From NCBI GenBank assembly GCA_051646105.1, contig JBOFCO010000234.1:14000-77999 (forward strand): DNA of 64,000 nt. Reading direction: 5' to 3'. The notes below the pieces were generated by a model. The model was not told the origin of the DNA, searched no databases, and saw only the letters and a program-made list of their open reading frames with translations. This stretch comes from Paracoccaceae bacterium (GTDB taxonomy: Bacteria; Pseudomonadota; Alphaproteobacteria; Rhodobacterales; Rhodobacteraceae). Below are positions 48,931-57,139 of the stretch, piece after piece (the stretch's first letter is position 1; the number at the start of each line of letters is the position of its first letter). Position numbers and translations under genes: made by a program.

Positions 48931-49539
48931 TTAGCCCAGTGAGGGCCGCGCCGGATCCTGCGCTTCGTTTTCGGCCAGTTCCGGACGCGTCAGTGCCAGG
49001 CGGAAATACAGGCAATTGCGTCCCGAACGGCGATTGTACCGCAACACCTCCGCCAATTCGCGGATCATGAACCAACCGAAACCGCCTTCCGGCAGATCAT
49101 CAATACTGGGCAGCATCGGATGATCGCCCTGTGGCAACGCATCGCCCGGCATGGCGGTCCCCGTATCGATGATTTCGCAGGACAATGCATCGGGGTCGCG
49201 CGTCAGGCGCACCACGATCCGGCCATCCGGGCTGTCAAGATAGGCATGTTCTACAATGTTGTTCATGGCTTCCGCCAGAACCAGCTCCAGCCGGCCCAGA
49301 TCAGAACCGGGGACTGCCGCGCTTTGCAGGGCTTCCCGCACCTGCGCCAGCGCAGCCCGCACCGACATCGGGGTGCTGTGCAGGCGCAGAACCATTTTTG
49401 GCCCCATGCCGTTTTCACCGGGCCTGGTACGCAGGCGGGCCTTTTCCTGCCGGGCTGTACTCTCGGTGCCGGGTGCCTCGATCAATGCGCTTACCTTGTC
49501 ACAGGGCAAATCCCTGCGCGGGAAAACATTACCTGTCAT
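48931..49539 (-). CDS. Anti-sigma regulatory factor-type Ser/Thr kinase (HATPase_c, RsbW/SpoIIAB-like)
   Basis: N-box-like LVLAEAMNNIVEHAY and G-box-like GGFGWFMIRELA. It lies downstream of a STAS gene. The true start may be an internal Met (49407 or 49395). Confidence 0.65.
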   Translation of the reverse strand: MTGNVFPRRDLPCDKVSALIEAPGTESTARQEKARLRTRPGENGMGPKMVLRLHSTPMSVRAALAQVREALQSAAVPGSDLGRLELVLAEAMNNIVEHAYLDSPDGRIVVRLTRDPDALSCEIIDTGTAMPGDALPQGDHPMLPSIDDLPEGGFGWFMIRELAEVLRYNRRSGRNCLYFRLALTRPELAENEAQDPARPSLG

Positions 49540-49563
49540 GCTTGCCCTGTGTCTTGCTTGCCG

Positions 49564-49905
49564 TCATGCCGCATCCCTCGGAGAGATCGCCGCCGTCGCA
49601 TCCTTGTGTATGGTGAACACCCTGTCCATGCGCGTCAGGCGCAACACGCGCTCGACCGGCGGGGTCAGCCCGGCAAGTTCAAGCCTGCGGCCATTTTCCA
49701 TCATCTTCAGGGCCGCGACGATTGCGCCAAGACCGCTGCTGTCAACAAAGTCGACACGCGCAAGATCAAGGACTACGCGCCGCGACGGTGTCGCGAAGGC
49801 TTCGCGCACGCGGTCCTTGAACTGGATGGCGACAGCCGCGTCGATCCTCGCCTCGGCCACTGTGATCAACAGCAGGTCATCATGTTGGCTGATTTCAAGG
49901 TTCAT
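49564..49905 (-). CDS. STAS-domain anti-sigma-factor antagonist
   Basis: 113 aa from MNLEISQHDD. LDLARVDFVDSSGLGAIVAA carries the phosphorylatable Ser context. GGAGGG RBS. The rest of ORF 49564..50331 is rejected. Confidence 0.75.
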   Translation of the reverse strand: MNLEISQHDDLLLITVAEARIDAAVAIQFKDRVREAFATPSRRVVLDLARVDFVDSSGLGAIVAALKMMENGRRLELAGLTPPVERVLRLTRMDRVFTIHKDATAAISPRDAA

Positions 49906-50031
49906 TCCACCCTCCGTGATTTTACGGAAAGCTAGGACCAACCCATTACCAATTCGTTTGCGTGATACGGCGAATTTGATCGGCCTTTTACTTTTCGATA
50001 AACAGGGCGTGCACCATGGAACGGACCGAAC

Positions 50032-50499
50032 ATGCCGACCCACCCACCGCTCGACTACTCCGCTCTTGCCGGCCGCATTGGCAGCCTGACCCATGGCGAA
50101 ACGGACGAGGTCGCCCTGATGGCCACGATTGCCTGTGAAGTCCATCACGCCGACGACAGGTTCGACTGGACGGGATTTTACCGCGTTAGCGGCCCGCAGA
50201 TGCTGAAAATCGGCCCGTATCAGGGCGGCCACGGCTGTCTTGTCATCCCGTTTTCGCGTGGTGTCTGCGGCGCGGCGGCGCGCACGGGGCAGGCGCAGCT
50301 TGTTCCGGATGTGGACGCGTTCCCCGGCCATATCGCCTGCGCGTCCACCACACGGTCCGAACTGGTGATTCCGGTCTTCGGTCGGGGTGGGCGACTGATC
50401 GGGGTTTTTGACATCGACAGCGACCGGCCTGCGGCCTTTACCGAAACCGATGCGTCGGAACTGGGCGCAATACTGGCGACGGTATTCAGCGCGCTTTAG
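50032..50499 (+). CDS. GAF-domain protein (YebR/MsrC free-methionine-R-sulfoxide-reductase-like)
   Basis: FDWTGFYRV...LKIGPYQGGHGCLVIPFSRGVCGAAA...HIACASTTRSELVIPVF is the characteristic single-GAF YebR pattern. Confidence 0.8.
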   Translation: MPTHPPLDYSALAGRIGSLTHGETDEVALMATIACEVHHADDRFDWTGFYRVSGPQMLKIGPYQGGHGCLVIPFSRGVCGAAARTGQAQLVPDVDAFPGHIACASTTRSELVIPVFGRGGRLIGVFDIDSDRPAAFTETDASELGAILATVFSAL

Positions 50500-50502
50500 C
50501 GA

Positions 50503-51138
50503 TTACCAGCGCAGCCACCGCGGCCCCAGAGCAGCCCCCAACGCCCCAAGCGACAGGATTGCAAGCCCGTACCAGGTGACAAAGAACAGCGGGTCATCCT
50601 CGTTACAATGGGTTGCATATAATGCGGCGGCAAGACCGCCCACGGCAAGACCTGCAACAAGACCACAGAACGCGGGCCGTGTGGTGGCCCCGCGCCGCAG
50701 GATGCCAAGGCCAAGCAACAGACCCGGCAGGCCAAGTCCAAAGATCGATGAAAGACAGATCAGATGCGTCTTTCCCATCATCGCCGGTCGCCAGTCGGCC
50801 ACGGGCAACACCGACAGCCGCCACATCACCAATCCTGCCGCAAGCACAAGTGCCAGCCCGGCAGCAAGCGGGGCATAGCCCACGCGCCCCTCGGGACGCG
50901 ACAGCCGGGCAGCACTTGCCATACCTGCGCCCAAAAAGATCATCGGCAGCAGCCATTTCCATAGCGTGATCTGCCCGACAAGCGCCGTTGCCAGATCGGG
51001 CCGGATGCCGATTGCCCACAGAAAACAGGCGCCCAGCGTCAGGACAGGCAGCATCATCCATAGGGCAAGCCCTGGCCACACCCTGTGCGGCGGCGTGGCA
51101 TCGGTCGCCAGCAGTGTCACCAGATCGTCGGTTTTCAT
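50503..51138 (-). CDS. nrsF: NrsF-family (DUF1109) membrane anti-sigma factor
   Basis: [17 protein letters not shown]-terminus followed by about six hydrophobic helices. Its start overlaps the sigma gene stop (ATGA). Confidence 0.8.
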   Translation of the reverse strand: MKTDDLVTLLATDATPPHRVWPGLALWMMLPVLTLGACFLWAIGIRPDLATALVGQITLWKWLLPMIFLGAGMASAARLSRPEGRVGYAPLAAGLALVLAAGLVMWRLSVLPVADWRPAMMGKTHLICLSSIFGLGLPGLLLGLGILRRGATTRPAFCGLVAGLAVGGLAAALYATHCNEDDPLFFVTWYGLAILSLGALGAALGPRWLRW

Positions 51139-51692
51139 CCGTTTTCCCTTTCGCGAAGGGCGGCCAGTTTGTTCAGGGCGCGGTGCAGCGCAACGCGGGC
51201 GGCGCCGTCGCTCAGCGCAAAGCGCTTGGCGACCTCGGCCATGCCAAGCCCCTCAAAGGCGAGCGCCCGAAGGATGCCGCCCGACCGCGTATCAAGCGCA
51301 TCAAGATTGCGCGCCACATCCCGTGTGGCGAAAACATCCGCCTCTGTCGGCGCGGCGATTGTGTCGGGGGTTTCGTCCAGCAGCTCCGCCAGTGGTTCCC
51401 TCCCGCGCTTTCGAAGGGCATCGACGATCTTGTGCCGGGCAATGGCGTAAAGCCATGGCCTTGGCGGGCGGTCCGGTTGCCACGTTCCGCGCTTCAGGTG
51501 GATGGCAAGCAACACGTCCTGCACGATATCCTCTTGCATATGCGTATCCAGCATGCGGGCCCTTGCCCGCACAATTCCACGCAGAACCGGCGTGGCCGCG
51601 CGCAGAAAGGCGGCATAGGCGGCGCTGTCGCCCCTATTGGCCGCATCAAGCAGCCGTGCCCATTCGTCGTCCGTTTCTGTCATCTCTGCCAT
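51135..51692 (-). CDS. sigF: ECF RNA polymerase sigma factor (SigF type)
   Basis: Region 2 ([17 protein letters not shown]...[16 protein letters not shown]) and region 4 ([29 protein letters not shown]). Start at [10 protein letters not shown] (51692) or MTETDDE (51683). Confidence 0.85.
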
Positions 51693-51696
51693 GCAA

Positions 51697-51721
51697 TTCG
51701 CATCCGTCCGGTGTTTGTTAC
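51697..51721 (-). promoter_or_regulatory. Possible SigF-type promoter for sigF-nrsF (GTAACA-N15-CGAA on the minus strand)
   Basis: Minus strand reads GTAACA aacaccggacggatg CGAA ttgc ATG. The spacer is 15 rather than 16 nt, and the -10 lies only 4 nt before the first ATG, which would imply a near-leaderless mRNA. Confidence 0.3.
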
Positions 51722-51777
51722 ATCGCCCTGGCAAAATGCCCGTCATTGTTGCGGCTGAACACCCTTTCGTGAACGGG

Positions 51778-51803
51778 GTAACAAATCCCACTCCTCTGAC
51801 GAA
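51778..51803 (+). promoter_or_regulatory. SigF-type ECF promoter for the DUF2282 operon (GTAACA-N16-CGAA)
   Basis: GTAACA (51778..51783), a 16-nt spacer, then CGAA (51800..51803), 53 nt upstream of the bufA ATG. As I recall it, this matches the GTAACC-N16-CGAA motif reported for Caulobacter SigF-dependent promoters. Confidence 0.55.
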
Positions 51804-51855
51804 CTGGCAAGTGCGGACCCGAAAGGCGGGCCGCCAGACCGACACGGAGGATGAC

Positions 51856-52146
51856 ATGTCGATGATGAAGAACACCCTTGGGCTTGGCGCTTCGCTGGCT
51901 TGCGCACTGACGATGATGGCGGGTGCGGCCCAGGCCGAGGGCGATATGGAAAAGTGCTACGGCGTGGCCGAAGCGGGCAAGAATGACTGTGCCGCCGGGG
52001 CGGGCACCACCTGCGCCGGAACCTCGAAAGTCGATTTCCAGGGCAACGCATGGAAATATGTGCCCGTCGGCACCTGCGTCACGATGGAAGCGCCCGAGGG
52101 CCGCATGGGCAGCCTGGAGCCGCTTGAGCGCGACATGGCGTCGTAA
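51856..52146 (+). CDS. bufA: DUF2282-family secreted precursor peptide (BufA1/bufferin-1 type)
   Basis: 96 aa. Signal peptide [27 protein letters not shown]. Core with four Cys in conserved contexts: EKCYGV, KNDCAAG, GTTCAGT, VGTCVTM. GGAGGA RBS. Start at aa 74 of ORF 51637..52146. Confidence 0.8.
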
Positions 52147-52205
52147 CCTCAAGGGGGCGCGGGAACAACCCGCGCCCCGTTTCCGCAAATCTGAAAGGTG
52201 CCGCC

Positions 52206-53057
52206 ATGACCCTGCCCGTCTCTGCCGGTGTCGGCTTCAAGCCGCAGCATTTCGCCGCGATCCGCAGTGCCCCCACAGGGCTGGGATTTTTCGAGGTGCA
52301 TGCCGAAAACTACATGGGTGCGGGTGGGTTGCCCCATGCGCAACTGGCAGCGTTGCGGGCGGATTATGCGATTTCGCTGCACGGCGTCGGCCTTTCCATC
52401 GGCGGCGCGGGCGGGCTGGACCGCCAACATCTGGCACGGTTGAAAGCGCTGTGCGACCGGTATCAGCCCGACAGCTTTTCCGAACACCTGGCATGGTCCA
52501 GCCATGGCAGCGAGTATCTGAACGATCTGCTGCCCTTGCCCTATACCGAAGAAACCCTTGCCATGGTTTGCGCCCACGTTGCCCAGGTGCAGGATCATCT
52601 TGGCCGCCGGATGCTTCTGGAAAATCCGTCGACCTATGTATTGTTCGAACACTCCACGATCCCGGAAACCGAATTTCTGACCCAGATTGTACGGCGTACC
52701 GGCTGCGGTTTGCTTCTTGATGTAAACAATGTGTTTGTCAGCGCCACCAATCACCGGACCGATGCCCGCGCCTATCTGGATGCCTTTCCGCTGGACCATG
52801 TGGGTGAAATTCATCTTGGCGGCCACGACACGGAAGAGCTGCCATCTGGCCCGCTGCTGATTGACGCACATGGTGCGCCGGTGGCCGATCCGGTATGGGC
52901 ACTTTATGGCGAGGTTCTGGATCGTGCGGGACCGCTGCCCACGCTGATCGAATGGGACAATGACGTGCCGGAATGGCCCGTCCTGCGGGAGGAAGCCGCC
53001 AGGGCAGAAGCCAGGCTGGCCATGGCAAAGGGGGTGCGCCTTGCCCACGCATCCTGA
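52206..53057 (+). CDS. bufB: DUF692-family multinuclear non-haem iron oxidative enzyme (MNIO; MbnB/BufB-like)
   Basis: 283 aa. GVGFKPQHF...[11 protein letters not shown]...SFSEHLAWS...LLENPSTY...[11 protein letters not shown] is the DUF692 TIM-barrel pattern. Confidence 0.9.
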
Positions 53058-53805
53058 ATTTCTTGCGGCCTTTGCAGACGGGATCACCAGCGGCACGCTT
53101 CCCCCCGGTCTGACCGCGCAGGTACCCGGTGAAGCCGCGCGCCGCTTTGCCGTCTATCGCAACAATGTCACCGTCAGCCTGATTGACGCGCTGGGCAAAC
53201 GTTTTCCTGTGATCGCCCGTCTGGTGGGGGATGACTTCTTTCGTGCCATGGCACGGCATTACGCGGAACAGCACAGGCCCAAAACACCCGTCATTCATGA
53301 GTGGGGCGACAGTTTCCCCGATTTTCTTGCAGGGTTCGAACCCCTGGCCGCCTATCCTTACATGGCCGACGTGGCCAGGATCGAACTGGCGCGGGGTTAT
53401 GCCTATCACGCCGCCGATGCTGAACCGCTGTCACCCGCCCTTATTGCCGCCGCAGCCGCCAGCCCGGAAACCGCACGGCTTTTTCTGCATCCTTCGGTGC
53501 AGGTCCTGCAATCGCACCACCCCGCTGTCAGCATCTGGCGTGCAAACCAGCCGGGGGTGGCCCCTGGCCCGATTGCTGCCGGGGGTGAAACTGCGCTGAT
53601 CCTGCGCAGTCGCAGCTTCGATGTGTCCGTGGAAAGCCTTTCGGCAGGCGATACCGCGTTTCTTCGGGCCATACTTGGGGGCGAGCGCCTGCTTGCCGCC
53701 GCCGAAATCGCCCGCTTTGCCGACCCTGACCACGACCCGCAGCCGATCCTGCTGCATCTCATGCACGCGGGTGCCGTCGTCACCACAGCCGAGGACAAGC
53801 CATGA
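53041..53805 (+). CDS. bufC: DUF2063-family protein (BufC/HvfC-like MNIO partner)
   Basis: [10 protein letters not shown]...[41 protein letters not shown] is the DUF2063 N-terminal pattern. The start is inferred as the TTG at 53041, overlapping bufB by 17 nt; the only in-frame ATG (52960) would overlap by 98 nt. Confidence 0.7.
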
Positions 53806-54269
53806 TCGCAACCATCCGCAGCCTGAACACCCTGCTTTCACATATTCCGAAGGACTTCACTGCGCTTGCCCTGCGCTTTTTTCCGGCGATGGTTTTCCTT
53901 CAGTCCGGTCGTACGAAGGTCGACGGGCTGTTTTCCATCAAGGACTCAACCTATTTCCTGTTCAGGGAAGAGTTCGCCCTTCCGCTGATCCCGCCGAACA
54001 TCGCGGCAGTGATGGCGACGACGGCGGAACATGTGCTGCCCTTATTGATGATCCTTGGCTTGTTTACACGTTTTTCCGCGTTAGGTCTGCTCGTGATGAC
54101 GGCGGTGATCCAGATATTCGTCTATCCGGATGCCTGGGTCACGCATGGGCTTTGGGCGGCGGCGCTACTGGCCACCGTTGCATGCGGCCCGGGGGCATGG
54201 TCGCTGGACCGGCTGCTTGGACTTGATGGCGCGGAAACCGGAACAAGCCATGCGGACAGAACGGCTTAG
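53802..54269 (+). CDS. DoxX-family membrane protein
   Basis: 155 aa, 4 hydrophobic helices, with [19 protein letters not shown] and [27 protein letters not shown] patterns. Its start overlaps the bufC stop (ATGA). Confidence 0.8.
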
Positions 54270-54353
54270 GCAGTTGCGCTGCTTGCAACTTTCGCCCAGA
54301 GGCTGACGTATCTTGCCCATGACCCACGCGGCGACACCCCGGACGGCTGACCC

Positions 54354-56504
54354 TTGACCAAGAAAATTGCCTTTCTGCTGATTGCCGCTGCCCTGCTGGG
54401 GGCTTTCTGGTGGCTGTCCGGTCAGAATCTCGATCTGGCGGGCCTGCGGGAAAGGCTGACCGCCGTCGAGGACTGGCGTCAGTCACGACCGCTGACCTTT
54501 GCCACCCTGTTCTTTGCCGGTTATGTCGCCATCACGGCGCTGTCGCTGCCGCTGGCCGTCTGGATGACGCTGGCCGCCGGCGCGCTGTTCGGATTCTGGC
54601 AGGGACTTGTGCTGGTGTCCTTTGCCTCGACCATCGGGGCGACGCTGGCCTTTCTGGCCGCGCGGTATCTGTTGCGCGACTGGGTTCGCGGGCGGCTGGG
54701 CACGCGCACCAAGGGGATCGAGGACGGCCTGCACCGCGACGGGCCGTTCTATCTGTTCACGCTGCGGCTGATCCCGGTGGTGCCGTTTTTTGCCGTCAAC
54801 CTGGTTATGGGGCTGACGCCGATGCGGGCGGCAACATTCTACCTTGTTTCGCAGGCGGGAATGCTGGCCGGGACGGCGGTCTATGTGAATGCGGGCACGC
54901 AGCTTGCACGGCTCGACAGCCTGTCGGGGCTCGTCTCCCCCGCGATGCTGGCATCTTTCGCAGCCCTGGGTCTGTTTCCCTGGCTCGCGCGGCTGGTGCT
55001 GGGCGCGGTCCGGCGCCGCAAGGTCTATGCGCGATGGAAAAGGCCCGCGAAATTTGACCGCAACCTGATCGTCATCGGCGCAGGCGCGGCGGGACTGGTT
55101 TCCAGCTATATCGCCGCTGCGACGAAGGCGAAGGTGACGCTGGTCGAGGCAGGCGAGATGGGTGGTGATTGCCTGAATTTCGGCTGCGTGCCGTCAAAGG
55201 CGCTGATCCGCAGCGCGAAACTGGCCCACCAGATGCGGCATGCTGATCGCTATGGCCTTGCCCCCAAAGACCCGCCGGTTCCTTTCGCTCAGGTCATGGA
55301 AAGGGTGCACGGCGTCATTTCCGAAATCGCGCCGCATGACTCCGTCGAACGCTATACCGGGTTGGGGGTGGAGGTCCTGAAAGGACGCGCTCGTCTGATC
55401 GATCCGTGGACCGTGGAAATCGCGCTGAATGACGGCGGCACACAGCGCCTGACCACGCGCGGCATTATAATCACCACCGGGGCCGCGCCCTTTGTACCGC
55501 CGCTGCCGGGGCTGGCGGACGTGGGGTATCTGACATCGGACACCATGTGGCAGGCGCTGCGCCACCACAATGCTGCACCGAAGCGGTTGGTGATGCTGGG
55601 CGGCGGCCCGATCGGCTGCGAGCTTGTGCAGGCCTTTGCCCGGCTTGGGTCGGAGGTAACACAGGTGGAAATGGCCCCGCGTCTGATGATGCGCGAGGAT
55701 GAGGAGGTTTCAGCGCTGGTCAGGTCCGCGCTGGAAGCCGATGGCGTAAAGGTGCTGACAGGACACCGGGCGTTGGCCTGTGGCCTGAGCGACGGGGAAA
55801 GGTGGATCGAGGTGGAGACCGGTGTCGACCGCCAGCGCATCGCCTTTGACGAGATCATTGTCGCCGTGGGCCGCGCCCCGCGCCTGCAAGGCTTCGGGCT
55901 GGAGGAGTTGGGTATTCCTGTCGGGCGCGTTGTCGAAACCAACGAATACCTTGAAACGCTTTACCCCAACATCCTCGCGGCAGGCGATGTGGCCGGACCA
56001 TACCAGTTTACCCATGCCGCCAGTCATCAGGCGTGGTTCGCCACGGTCAACGCACTGTTCGGCGGCATCAAGCGGTTCAAGGTTGATTACCGGGTGATCC
56101 CCTGGGCTACATTCACCGACCCGGAAGTGGCCCGTGTCGGGCTGTCAGAGGCAGAGGCGGCGGAGCAGGGTATCGCGGTCGAAGTAACACGCTATGGCAT
56201 CGACGACCTTGACCGGGCGATTGCAGATGGTTCGGCCAAAGGTTTCGTGAAGGTGCTGACGCCGCCCGGCAAGGACCGTATCCTTGGCGTGACCATCGTC
56301 GGCGAACATGCGGGCGATCTGCTGGCGGAATTCGTGCTGGCGATGAAGCACGGGCTGGGGCTGAAAAGGATACTGGGCACGATCCACATCTATCCGACGC
56401 TGGCCGAGGCGAACAAATACGCTGCGGGGGAATGGCAGCGGGCACATGTGAACCCGCGCCTGCTGCGCGTCGTCGAGCGCTATCATGGGTGGAGACGCCG
56501 ATGA
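54354..56504 (+). CDS. Fusion protein: N-terminal TVP38/TMEM64 (DedA-superfamily) membrane domain plus C-terminal class-I pyridine-nucleotide-disulfide oxidoreductase (mercuric-reductase/dihydrolipoamide-dehydrogenase-like)
   Basis: About 230 aa of membrane helices with the DedA-like LRLIPVVPFFAVNLVMGLT segment. Then LIVIGAGAAGL (FAD), GGDCLNFGCVPSKAL (redox-active CxxxxC), LVMLGGGPIGCE (NAD) and the C-terminal HIYPTLAE interface motif. TTG start as in the ORF track. Confidence 0.8.
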   Translation: MTKKIAFLLIAAALLGAFWWLSGQNLDLAGLRERLTAVEDWRQSRPLTFATLFFAGYVAITALSLPLAVWMTLAAGALFGFWQGLVLVSFASTIGATLAFLAARYLLRDWVRGRLGTRTKGIEDGLHRDGPFYLFTLRLIPVVPFFAVNLVMGLTPMRAATFYLVSQAGMLAGTAVYVNAGTQLARLDSLSGLVSPAMLASFAALGLFPWLARLVLGAVRRRKVYARWKRPAKFDRNLIVIGAGAAGLVSSYIAAATKAKVTLVEAGEMGGDCLNFGCVPSKALIRSAKLAHQMRHADRYGLAPKDPPVPFAQVMERVHGVISEIAPHDSVERYTGLGVEVLKGRARLIDPWTVEIALNDGGTQRLTTRGIIITTGAAPFVPPLPGLADVGYLTSDTMWQALRHHNAAPKRLVMLGGGPIGCELVQAFARLGSEVTQVEMAPRLMMREDEEVSALVRSALEADGVKVLTGHRALACGLSDGERWIEVETGVDRQRIAFDEIIVAVGRAPRLQGFGLEELGIPVGRVVETNEYLETLYPNILAAGDVAGPYQFTHAASHQAWFATVNALFGGIKRFKVDYRVIPWATFTDPEVARVGLSEAEAAEQGIAVEVTRYGIDDLDRAIADGSAKGFVKVLTPPGKDRILGVTIVGEHAGDLLAEFVLAMKHGLGLKRILGTIHIYPTLAEANKYAAGEWQRAHVNPRLLRVVERYHGWRRR

Positions 56505-57139
56505 TCGACGCCCTTCTTCTGCCCGCGCAGCGCCAACTGCTGTCCTATCCGGCACGTCTGCTTGCAAGGCGGGGCATTTCGGCAGATCACATCACACTGG
56601 CGGGTTTCGGGGTTGGTCTGCTGACCCTGCCTGCCCTGGCCTTCGGTGCCTATGCCCTTACTCTGGGGCTGATGGCCCTGAACCGGCTGGCCGACGGGCT
56701 GGACGGGGCTGTTGCGCGCGAAACCGGCACGACGGATCGGGGCGCATTTCTGGACATATCGCTCGACTTCCTGTTTTACGCGATTTTTCCGTTGGGTTTC
56801 GCGCTGGCCGATCCCACCACCAACGCATTGCCCGCCGCCATTCTGATCGCGGCCTTTGTCGGAACAGGGTCGTCCTTCCTTGCCTATGCCGTGATTGCAG
56901 CGAAGCGGGGAGAGATCGCCGCGCGCTATCCGATGAAGGGCATCCATTACCTTGGCGGGCTGACCGAAGGGTTCGAGACCATCGCAATTTTCACCGCCAT
57001 GTGCCTGTTCCCTGCGATGTTCCCCATACTCGCGTATATCTTCGCTGCCGCCTGCGCAGTGACCACCGGCTTTCGCTGGTATCGCGGCTGGCTTGCCTTT
57101 ACCGATCCGACCATGACCAACCGACCGGAGTCAGAATGA
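56501..57139 (+). CDS. CDP-alcohol phosphatidyltransferase-family membrane protein (YnjF-like)
   Basis: DGLDGAVARETGTTDRGAFLDISLDFLFY fits D-G-x2-A-R-x7,8-G-x3-D-x3-D. 212 aa. The ATG at 56501 overlaps the upstream stop. Confidence 0.8.
   Translation: MIDALLLPAQRQLLSYPARLLARRGISADHITLAGFGVGLLTLPALAFGAYALTLGLMALNRLADGLDGAVARETGTTDRGAFLDISLDFLFYAIFPLGFALADPTTNALPAAILIAAFVGTGSSFLAYAVIAAKRGEIAARYPMKGIHYLGGLTEGFETIAIFTAMCLFPAMFPILAYIFAAACAVTTGFRWYRGWLAFTDPTMTNRPESE

Follow-up and report, generated by a model that had tools for sequence, protein, structure and literature searches.

A predicted bufferin-1 gene cluster with a SigF/NrsF-type regulatory pair in a Paracoccaceae bacterium

A stretch of 64,000 nucleotides from a Paracoccaceae bacterium (GenBank assembly GCA_051646105.1, contig JBOFCO010000234.1, positions 14,000 to 77,999 of the forward strand), hereafter the window, carries at positions 50503-54269 of its own numbering six genes in two divergent units. 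The genes for the membrane anti-sigma factor NrsF and for an extracytoplasmic function (ECF) sigma factor lie on the reverse strand, and bufA, bufB, bufC, and bufD lie on the forward strand (Table 1). Very probably the locus is a bufferin-1 (Buf1, DUF2282-type) cluster, bufABCD, for a peptide that is made ribosomally and modified post-translationally (RiPP), placed under a dedicated sigma/anti-sigma pair of the ECF16 SigF/NrsF type. An initial annotation, made by a model from the DNA letters, had called the locus a bufferin-1-type cluster, and this reading is upheld: BufB passes the family-specific equivalog model, the cysteine register of the precursor equals that of Caulobacter BufA1, and SigF-type promoters stand before both operons. 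The background that the annotation gave, namely the SigF regulon, thiooxazole formation by BufB with BufC, and periplasmic copper binding, was also accurate.

Table 1. Features of the buf locus, in window coordinates
Feature	Position	Strand	Description or basis
nrsF	50503..51138	-	membrane anti-sigma factor (DUF1109/NrsF), 211 aa; PF06532 E=4.4e-44
sigF (ECF sigma factor, SigF/RpoE7 type, group ECF16)	51135..51692	-	Sigma70_r2, Sigma70_r4_2, Sigma70_ECF
SigF-type promoter of sigF-nrsF	51697..51721	-	GTAACA-N15-CGAA
SigF-type promoter of the buf operon	51778..51803	+	GTAACA-N16-CGAA
bufA, predicted bufferin-1 precursor, 96 aa	51856..52146	+	PF10048 DUF2282
BufA predicted signal peptide, residues 1-27	51856-51936	+
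BufA predicted core, 69 aa	51937-52143	+
Intercistronic hairpin GGGGCGCGGG-aacaa-CCCGCGCCCC	52154..52178	+	fold energy, structural conservation
bufB, MNIO (DUF692) enzyme, 283 aa	52206..53057	+	PF05114, NF050167
bufC, DUF2063 partner protein, 254 aa from TTG	53041..53805	+	PF09836; ORF caller: ATG 52960
bufD, DoxX-family membrane protein, 155 aa	53802..54269	+	PF07681 DoxX E=1e-17

Results

Gene families and conservation of the locus

The reading rests on gene content, protein families, synteny, promoter motifs, and the conservation of catalytic, substrate, and sensor residues. Searches with hidden Markov models, which had been proposed with the initial annotation, assigned each of the six proteins to the family predicted for it, and every assignment passed the curated Pfam gathering score; the DUF692, DUF2063, and DoxX genes expected downstream of the precursor and the divergently transcribed ECF sigma factor and NrsF all had Pfam matches. 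For comparison, we used 80 related loci (L001-L080), all from alphaproteobacteria, whose BufB proteins are 62-77% identical to the one studied here. The nearest BufB relatives, at 77% identity, are from Paracoccaceae, and the nearest loci belong to Roseovarius, Tabrizicola, Rhodobacter, Gemmobacter, and Paracoccus.

The gene set is conserved among these loci. A bufC gene accompanies bufB in 80/80 of them, bufA in 79/80, and bufD in 64/80; sigF is present in 45/80 and nrsF in 42/80. The gene order with an adjacent sigma factor and anti-sigma factor is thus kept in 42-45 of the 80, usually in the same divergent layout. This recurrence, like the invariance of the precursor's core cysteines described below, exceeds what chance would give. 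A published survey of MNIO clusters describes four buf genes as the core and reports that sigma factor and NrsF genes occur in Buf1 clusters as a common architecture, although they accompany only some of these clusters.

The precursor peptide

The small open reading frame (ORF) that the initial annotation had singled out, with its Sec signal and four-cysteine core of about 69 residues, was found where it had been placed. BufA matched PF10048 (DUF2282) over the threshold (E=7e-25, 87.2 bits, cut-off 22.4), and its ATG is preceded at 5 nt by a Shine-Dalgarno sequence, GGAGG. The only hydrophobic segment of the protein spans residues 7-25, with Lys5 in the n-region and AQA at positions -3 to -1 (AQA|EG). 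By these simple rules a signal peptide was called; a lone hydrophobic segment at the N-terminus, followed by AQA, fits a Sec signal.

The predicted core is acidic and has cysteines at core positions 7, 18, 26, and 47. Their spacing of 11/8/21 is the same as in Caulobacter BufA1, for which the published positions are Cys12/23/31/52, so that the register check suggested at the outset gave agreement. In an alignment of 79 BufA sequences (our own and 78 homologs from the related loci) the four core cysteines are invariant, within the shared pattern KC.G....G.NDCAAG.GT.CAGT...D.Q...W..V..GTC. A fifth cysteine, residue 16 in the signal peptide, is unconserved in the same alignment. A lipoprotein nature of BufA was considered on account of Cys16 and rejected, as the S-L-A before it fits no lipobox by our own reading of the rule and the residue is not conserved. 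Searches of the PDB by sequence with BufA and with BufC returned no solved relative. The computed monoisotopic mass of the unmodified core (EGDMEKC...DMAS) is 7146.17 Da, and that of the predicted mature peptide about 7136.09 Da (10.08 Da lighter). Two thiooxazoles would account for 2 x 4.03 Da of this loss and one disulfide for 2.02 Da.

As the initial annotation had remarked, bufA is buried in a longer call, here a mechanical 169-aa ORF with a TTG start (51637-52146). The corresponding gene of Caulobacter CB15, CC3254, was first annotated with a 57-aa N-terminal extension, and the masking of bufA by an over-long ORF looks like a recurrent annotation artifact. The initial annotation of the present locus had expected automatic pipelines to label all four genes hypothetical or DUF, which is outdated: more than 7,900 database proteins match BufA, some homologs carry the NCBI name "BufA1 family periplasmic bufferin-type metallophore", and a BufB equivalog exists in NCBIfam. 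Even so, ORF callers would make bufA and sigF too long and place the start of bufC wrongly.

The maturation proteins BufB and BufC and the membrane protein BufD

BufB matched PF05114 (MbnB_TglH_ChrH/MNIO) with E=2.9e-107 and the NCBIfam equivalog NF050167 MNIO_BufB ("MNIO family bufferin maturase") over the full model (1-262/262) with 391.3 bits against a cut-off of 310, and it fell below the cut-offs of the MbnB, HvfB, ApyH, and ChrH equivalogs. Among solved structures, 3BWW is the closest (E=4e-42). None of the nine iron-ligand positions is missing (H59, H94, E139, D172, N175, H203, D220, H222, and E249); seven of them are invariant in 80/80 homologs, and N175 and E249 each differ in one. 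They correspond to H54, H90, E133, D163, N166, H192, D208, H210, and E239 of MbnB, a correspondence drawn from shared motifs in the alignments with 3BWW and 7DZ9 and from spacing, not from structure superposition.

BufC matched PF09836 (DUF2063) over residues 9-96 with E about 5e-26 to 7e-26; the published BufC1 has a C-terminal domain resembling a RiPP recognition element (RRE). For bufC, TTG 53041 is the likeliest start, because this position, which lies 16 nt short of the bufB end, bears a start codon in relatives (TTG, GTG, or ATG), is the sole candidate in three of them (L001, L006, and L017), and is preceded at 6 nt by AAGGGGG. The start chosen by the ORF caller, ATG 52960, would make bufC overlap bufB by 98 nt.

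BufD is an accessory protein. In Caulobacter the DoxX protein is dispensable both for modification and for copper protection, and by analogy BufD is probably dispensable for modification here as well.

With the TTG start bufB and bufC overlap by 17 nt, bufC and bufD share the ATGA at 53802-53805, and sigF and nrsF overlap by 4 nt (51135-51138).

The sigma factor, NrsF, and their promoters

The ECF sigma factor scored 57.3 bits against NCBIfam TIGR02937 (sigma70-ECF, cut-off 42.9), and NrsF matched Pfam PF06532 over its full length (151 bits, cut-off 26.8). NrsF has five clear hydrophobic segments and a weaker one. Two of its cysteines, Cys128 and Cys178, are invariant in 42/42 homologs, and their spacing of 50 residues is that of C131 and C181 of Caulobacter NrsF, which are required to keep SigF inactive and whose replacement releases SigF. 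Simple topology reasoning would put Cys128 and Cys178 at predicted periplasmic helix ends.

The published SigF consensus of Caulobacter is GTAACC-N16-CGAA. A search of the whole window with GTAAC-N15-19-CGAA gave only two matches, where about 0.7 would be expected by chance, and both fall between the divergent operons, within the intergenic region of 160 bp, each facing one of the two; we estimate the odds of finding both correctly oriented in one such region at about 1 in a million. The promoter on the buf side begins 78 nt before the ATG of bufA. In the closest relatives the motif lies about 75-85 nt upstream of bufA, and a strict match is found in 22/79 loci. On the sigF side the motif occurs in 23/42 related loci. 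Its position implies autoregulation of sigF-nrsF, and a SigF-dependent promoter upstream of sigF has been shown in Caulobacter.

This promoter also bears on where sigF begins. The ORF caller extends the gene to GTG 51875, which is about 60 codons too long and runs across the promoter region. A start upstream of 51692 is disfavored, because the -10 element ends at 51697 and an earlier start would fall outside the transcript. The real start is probably ATG 51692 or, preferably, ATG 51683, the CGAA ending 4 nt before the former and 13 nt before the latter; in relatives CGAA is followed by 8-13 nt and then ATG, and the N-terminus read from 51683 (MTETDDEW) resembles that of the sigma factor of a related locus, L013 (MTETEDLW). 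The sigF mRNA is probably leaderless or nearly so.

A conserved hairpin after bufA

The initial annotation had described the precursor gene as coupled to the genes that follow. This holds for bufB with bufC and for bufC with bufD, as the overlaps given above indicate, but not for bufA and bufB, which are not translationally coupled; a spacer of 59 nt (52147-52205) bearing a hairpin separates them. The hairpin, a perfect 10-bp GC stem, begins 8 nt past the bufA stop codon and is followed by GTTTCC. Its local fold energy is -25.9 kcal/mol, as compared with -14.6 +/- 2.6 kcal/mol for shuffled sequences. Hairpins of -18 kcal/mol or lower lie within 60 nt of the bufA stop codon in 90% of 79 related loci, whereas a control stretch inside bufB has a hairpin of the same strength in only 5%. 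The stem sequences vary between loci, so the structure is kept and the sequence is not.

We considered a canonical intrinsic terminator at this position and found it unsupported: the T-run here is short, and a U-rich tail after the hairpin is uncommon among the related loci. A terminator scanner left the hairpin unflagged on account of the too short T-run. A scan of positions 49500-55000 with Rfam gave no match to a known RNA family. We suggest tentatively, and with some reserve, that the hairpin is a functional RNA element setting a high ratio of precursor to enzyme. It may act by partial termination (attenuation) or by protecting and stabilizing a processed bufA transcript; on our reading, a conserved attenuating or stabilizing stem-loop would boost the precursor over the enzymes. 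Stem-loop devices that set the ratio of precursor to enzyme are known in other RiPP and bacteriocin operons.

Neighboring genes

The flanks of the locus encode an SLT transglycosylase, a YccV-like protein, a HATPase/STAS pair, a GAF protein, a VTT-FAD oxidoreductase, a CDP-alcohol transferase, and a solute-binding protein, which look like chromosomal housekeeping genes. The GAF, STAS/HATPase, and VTT-FAD oxidoreductase genes were considered as parts of the system and set aside, none of them being a conserved neighbor in the 80 loci. No second bufferin locus (a buf2 paralog) was found in the 64-kb window.

On the nrsF side, a single-domain GAF protein of 155 aa (50032-50499, forward strand) is encoded convergently with nrsF at a distance of 3 nt; it is not found beside the buf loci of relatives. 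Farther out, an anti-sigma-type kinase (HATPase_c_2) and a STAS protein are encoded in tandem on the reverse strand (48931-49920) as a pair of the partner-switching type, seemingly unconnected with the buf locus. The STAS ORF is listed as 49564-50331, which is too long: the domain match falls within the 118 aa encoded by 49564-49920.

On the bufD side lies a gene for a VTT/DedA-FAD fusion protein of 716 aa (54354-56504, forward strand), in which an N-terminal membrane domain is joined to an FAD-dependent pyridine nucleotide-disulfide oxidoreductase with the redox motif GGDCLNFGC. It resembles MerA and lipoamide dehydrogenase and scored below all equivalog cut-offs. The CDP-alcohol phosphatidyltransferase ORF that follows (56432-57139, forward strand) overlaps the end of the oxidoreductase gene by 73 nt as called, and the gene probably begins at a later position. 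A homolog of this transferase is also encoded downstream of bufD in loci L001 and L006, hinting at a local gene order shared with Roseovarius and Paracoccus relatives.

Discussion

How would such a locus work? In the unstressed cell NrsF, with six helices in the inner membrane and a conserved pair of cysteines on the periplasmic face, would hold the sigma factor at the membrane. Periplasmic stress, most likely an excess of copper or of another thiol-reactive metal, would inactivate NrsF, and the freed sigma factor would transcribe its own operon from GTAACA-N15-CGAA and bufABCD from GTAACA-N16-CGAA. BufB, an iron enzyme, and its partner BufC would jointly oxidize Cys18 and Cys26 of the BufA core to 5-thiooxazoles in the cytoplasm. 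The precursor would then be exported by Sec and cut by signal peptidase after Ala27, the outer cysteines of the core, Cys7 and Cys47, would form a disulfide, and the 69-residue product would chelate periplasmic copper and buffer its toxicity.

The chemistry, export, copper binding, and inducing signal in this scheme are transferred by homology. In Caulobacter Buf1, cysteines II and III are converted to 5-thiooxazoles by BufB and BufC, cysteines I and IV form a disulfide, and copper is bound 1:1; Sec export of BufA1 and cleavage of its signal peptide have been shown, as have induction by copper, copper binding, and protection. A Buf1 cluster associated with a sigma factor and NrsF has been shown experimentally in Caulobacter and in Sinorhizobium meliloti.

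Nothing in the sequence contradicts the bufferin-1 reading, although several points weigh against it. All of the biochemical and physiological steps are taken over from a homolog, and the comparison with Caulobacter BufA1 is one of cysteine register from published positions, not of sequence identity. The best specific sigma factor equivalog, PRK12512, gave 188 bits and so fell just short of its cut-off of 198, and NrsF scored 90.5 bits against a narrow NCBIfam NrsF equivalog with a cut-off of 300. BufC matched the NCBIfam model for HvfC RiPP maturation proteins over residues 28-214 (E=4e-15), a span that takes in its C-terminal part, with 56 bits, below the cut-off of 142. An AlphaFold2 model of BufA, built from a 54-sequence alignment, is of low confidence, with a mean predicted local distance difference test score (pLDDT) of 56.6 and values below 50 in the segment between cysteines II and III. 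Finally, the orthologous promoters of S. meliloti are not induced by H2O2, cadmium, or chromate, and the SigF/NrsF pair of Azospira senses chlorite and hypochlorite.

Because these last two pairs behave differently, the signal cannot safely be transferred, and the identity of the inducer, be it copper, another metal, or an oxidant, which we can only infer, is the weakest link of the mechanism. It is conceivable, though unlikely on balance, that the same cluster makes the same product in response to, and for a role against, reactive chlorine, other oxidants, or thiol-reactive metals such as cadmium, chromate, or gold. Besides the behavior of the Azospira and S. meliloti systems, the first description of Caulobacter SigF as responsive to chromate and cadmium speaks for a trigger other than copper, as do orthologous operons elsewhere that are induced by gold or cadmium or controlled by BvgAS, and the family survey, too, anticipates roles with other metals. 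However, only one system has been put to a direct test, and there copper, but not iron, zinc, or manganese, induced bufA1; the peptide of that system is copper-selective and protects against copper; the Azospira regulon, moreover, is a different operon (yedYZ-mrpX) and not buf.

Could the operon have a fifth member? The VTT/DedA-FAD oxidoreductase gene would be the candidate, its product supplying, for example, reducing power at the membrane. The gene follows bufD at 84 nt on the same strand, with a 6-bp hairpin and no convincing terminator in between, and its product, similar to disulfide reductases and MerA, contains a CxxxxC redox motif. We nevertheless regard a functional role in the operon as improbable, since a similar sequence stands beside bufD in only 1/80 loci, with partial cover of the query (567 nt), the window search found no SigF-type motif in front of the gene, and the published bufferin core is bufABCD, of four genes.

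The nature of the modification is a further question. The cysteines of BufA might be converted to oxazolone-thioamide pairs, as in methanobactin, instead of 5-thiooxazoles. The two modifications are hard to distinguish, both have been proposed for close MNIOs, and the structural assignments for related products have been in conflict. Against this, nuclear magnetic resonance data on Caulobacter Buf1 supported the 5-thiooxazole; oxazolin was revised to 5-thiooxazole in later work, which extended the assignment to this entire MNIO group; and the title of one further study also counts against the oxazolone-thioamide. BufB itself scored only 48 bits against the MbnB equivalog TIGR04159, with a cut-off of 325. 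Oxazolone-thioamide formation here is thus very improbable, and the thiooxazole assignment, though it has been contested, is supported by recent work.

That the cluster makes no RiPP at all, the DUF2282 protein being an integral membrane protein or an unmodified cysteine-rich periplasmic one, is scarcely credible: the Pfam description of PF10048 is "Predicted integral membrane protein" and JGI calls homologs "uncharacterized membrane protein", but the N-terminal signal sequence is the only hydrophobic stretch of BufA, the mature BufA1 detected in Caulobacter was modified and had lost the predicted signal peptide, as would fit a periplasmic location, and the DUF2282 gene is linked to bufB and bufC across the related loci.

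Relation to known systems

The buf1ABCD operon of Caulobacter vibrioides (CCNA_03363-03366 / CC3254-3257), together with sigF-nrsF (CC3253-CC3252), comprises the same six families as the locus described here. The Caulobacter sigF-nrsF genes are numbered beside, and reported near, buf1ABCD. In both cases a DUF2282 precursor with a Sec signal has a core of 68-69 residues with identical cysteine spacing, the sigma factor promoter motif precedes both operons, and both NrsF cysteines are conserved. The -35 element is GTAACA here and GTAACC there, and the present window has no buf2 paralog.

In S. meliloti, rpoE7-ecfR7 and SMb20530-SMb20527 (ECF16) form a comparable arrangement, in which a sigma factor and an anti-sigma factor are encoded beside four genes (for a membrane protein, a DUF692 protein, a DUF2063 protein, and a hypothetical protein). 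Overexpression of RpoE7 up-regulated the four-gene cluster, and the TGTAACA-N16-CGAAT promoters, found before rpoE7 itself and SMb20530, are nearly identical to those here. That locus is carried by the megaplasmid pSymB, and no inducer of it was found, whereas the flanks of the present locus look chromosomal. The gig (gold-induced genes) operon of Cupriavidus metallidurans and its orthologs in Legionella and Bordetella are four-gene operons of the same bufABCD type that differ in regulation, some of them being metal-induced and that of Bordetella being under BvgAS.

Two other groups of MNIO systems are more distant. In the HvfABC/oxazolin and fontiphorin systems ("captophorins"), an MNIO and an RRE-type partner put 5-thiooxazoles on cysteines of precursors that bear signal peptides, with a link to copper. 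The next-best NCBIfam matches of BufB, BufC, and BufD are HvfB, HvfC, and HvfX, all of them below cut-off (239 vs 360, 56 vs 142, and 50 vs 80 bits, respectively), and the Hvf precursors, with motifs of the EGKCG type, fall in another sequence cluster. By sequence, the Buf proteins here are related to Hvf proteins and represent another subfamily. With the methanobactin system MbnABC the locus shares the MNIO fold and the set of iron ligands, and in both a heterocycle derived from cysteine binds, or here would bind, copper. The present locus differs in its DUF2063 partner and its DUF2282 precursor with a Sec signal, and has no MbnC, no transporter, and no leader-peptide logic. The methanobactin product is a short, secreted, copper-acquiring peptide with oxazolone-thioamide groups, and not a periplasmic buffer of 69 residues.

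In summary, the gene set, chemistry, regulator, and promoter of this locus have already been published for homologs, and the locus is an ordinary member of a very large family: a further intact case of a copper-defense system that occurs very widely, and it opens no new question. It is a clean annotation case, with over-long ORFs for bufA and sigF and a TTG start for bufC, and the mass that it predicts for the mature peptide is precise and open to test. The sole mildly new point is the conserved hairpin after the precursor gene, an element of which the PNAS bufferin paper makes no mention. The hairpin could explain how the substrate peptide comes to far exceed the modifying enzyme, and, if this proves true, the hairpin and the near-leaderless, autoregulated sigF transcript would together give the circuit a defined expression logic.

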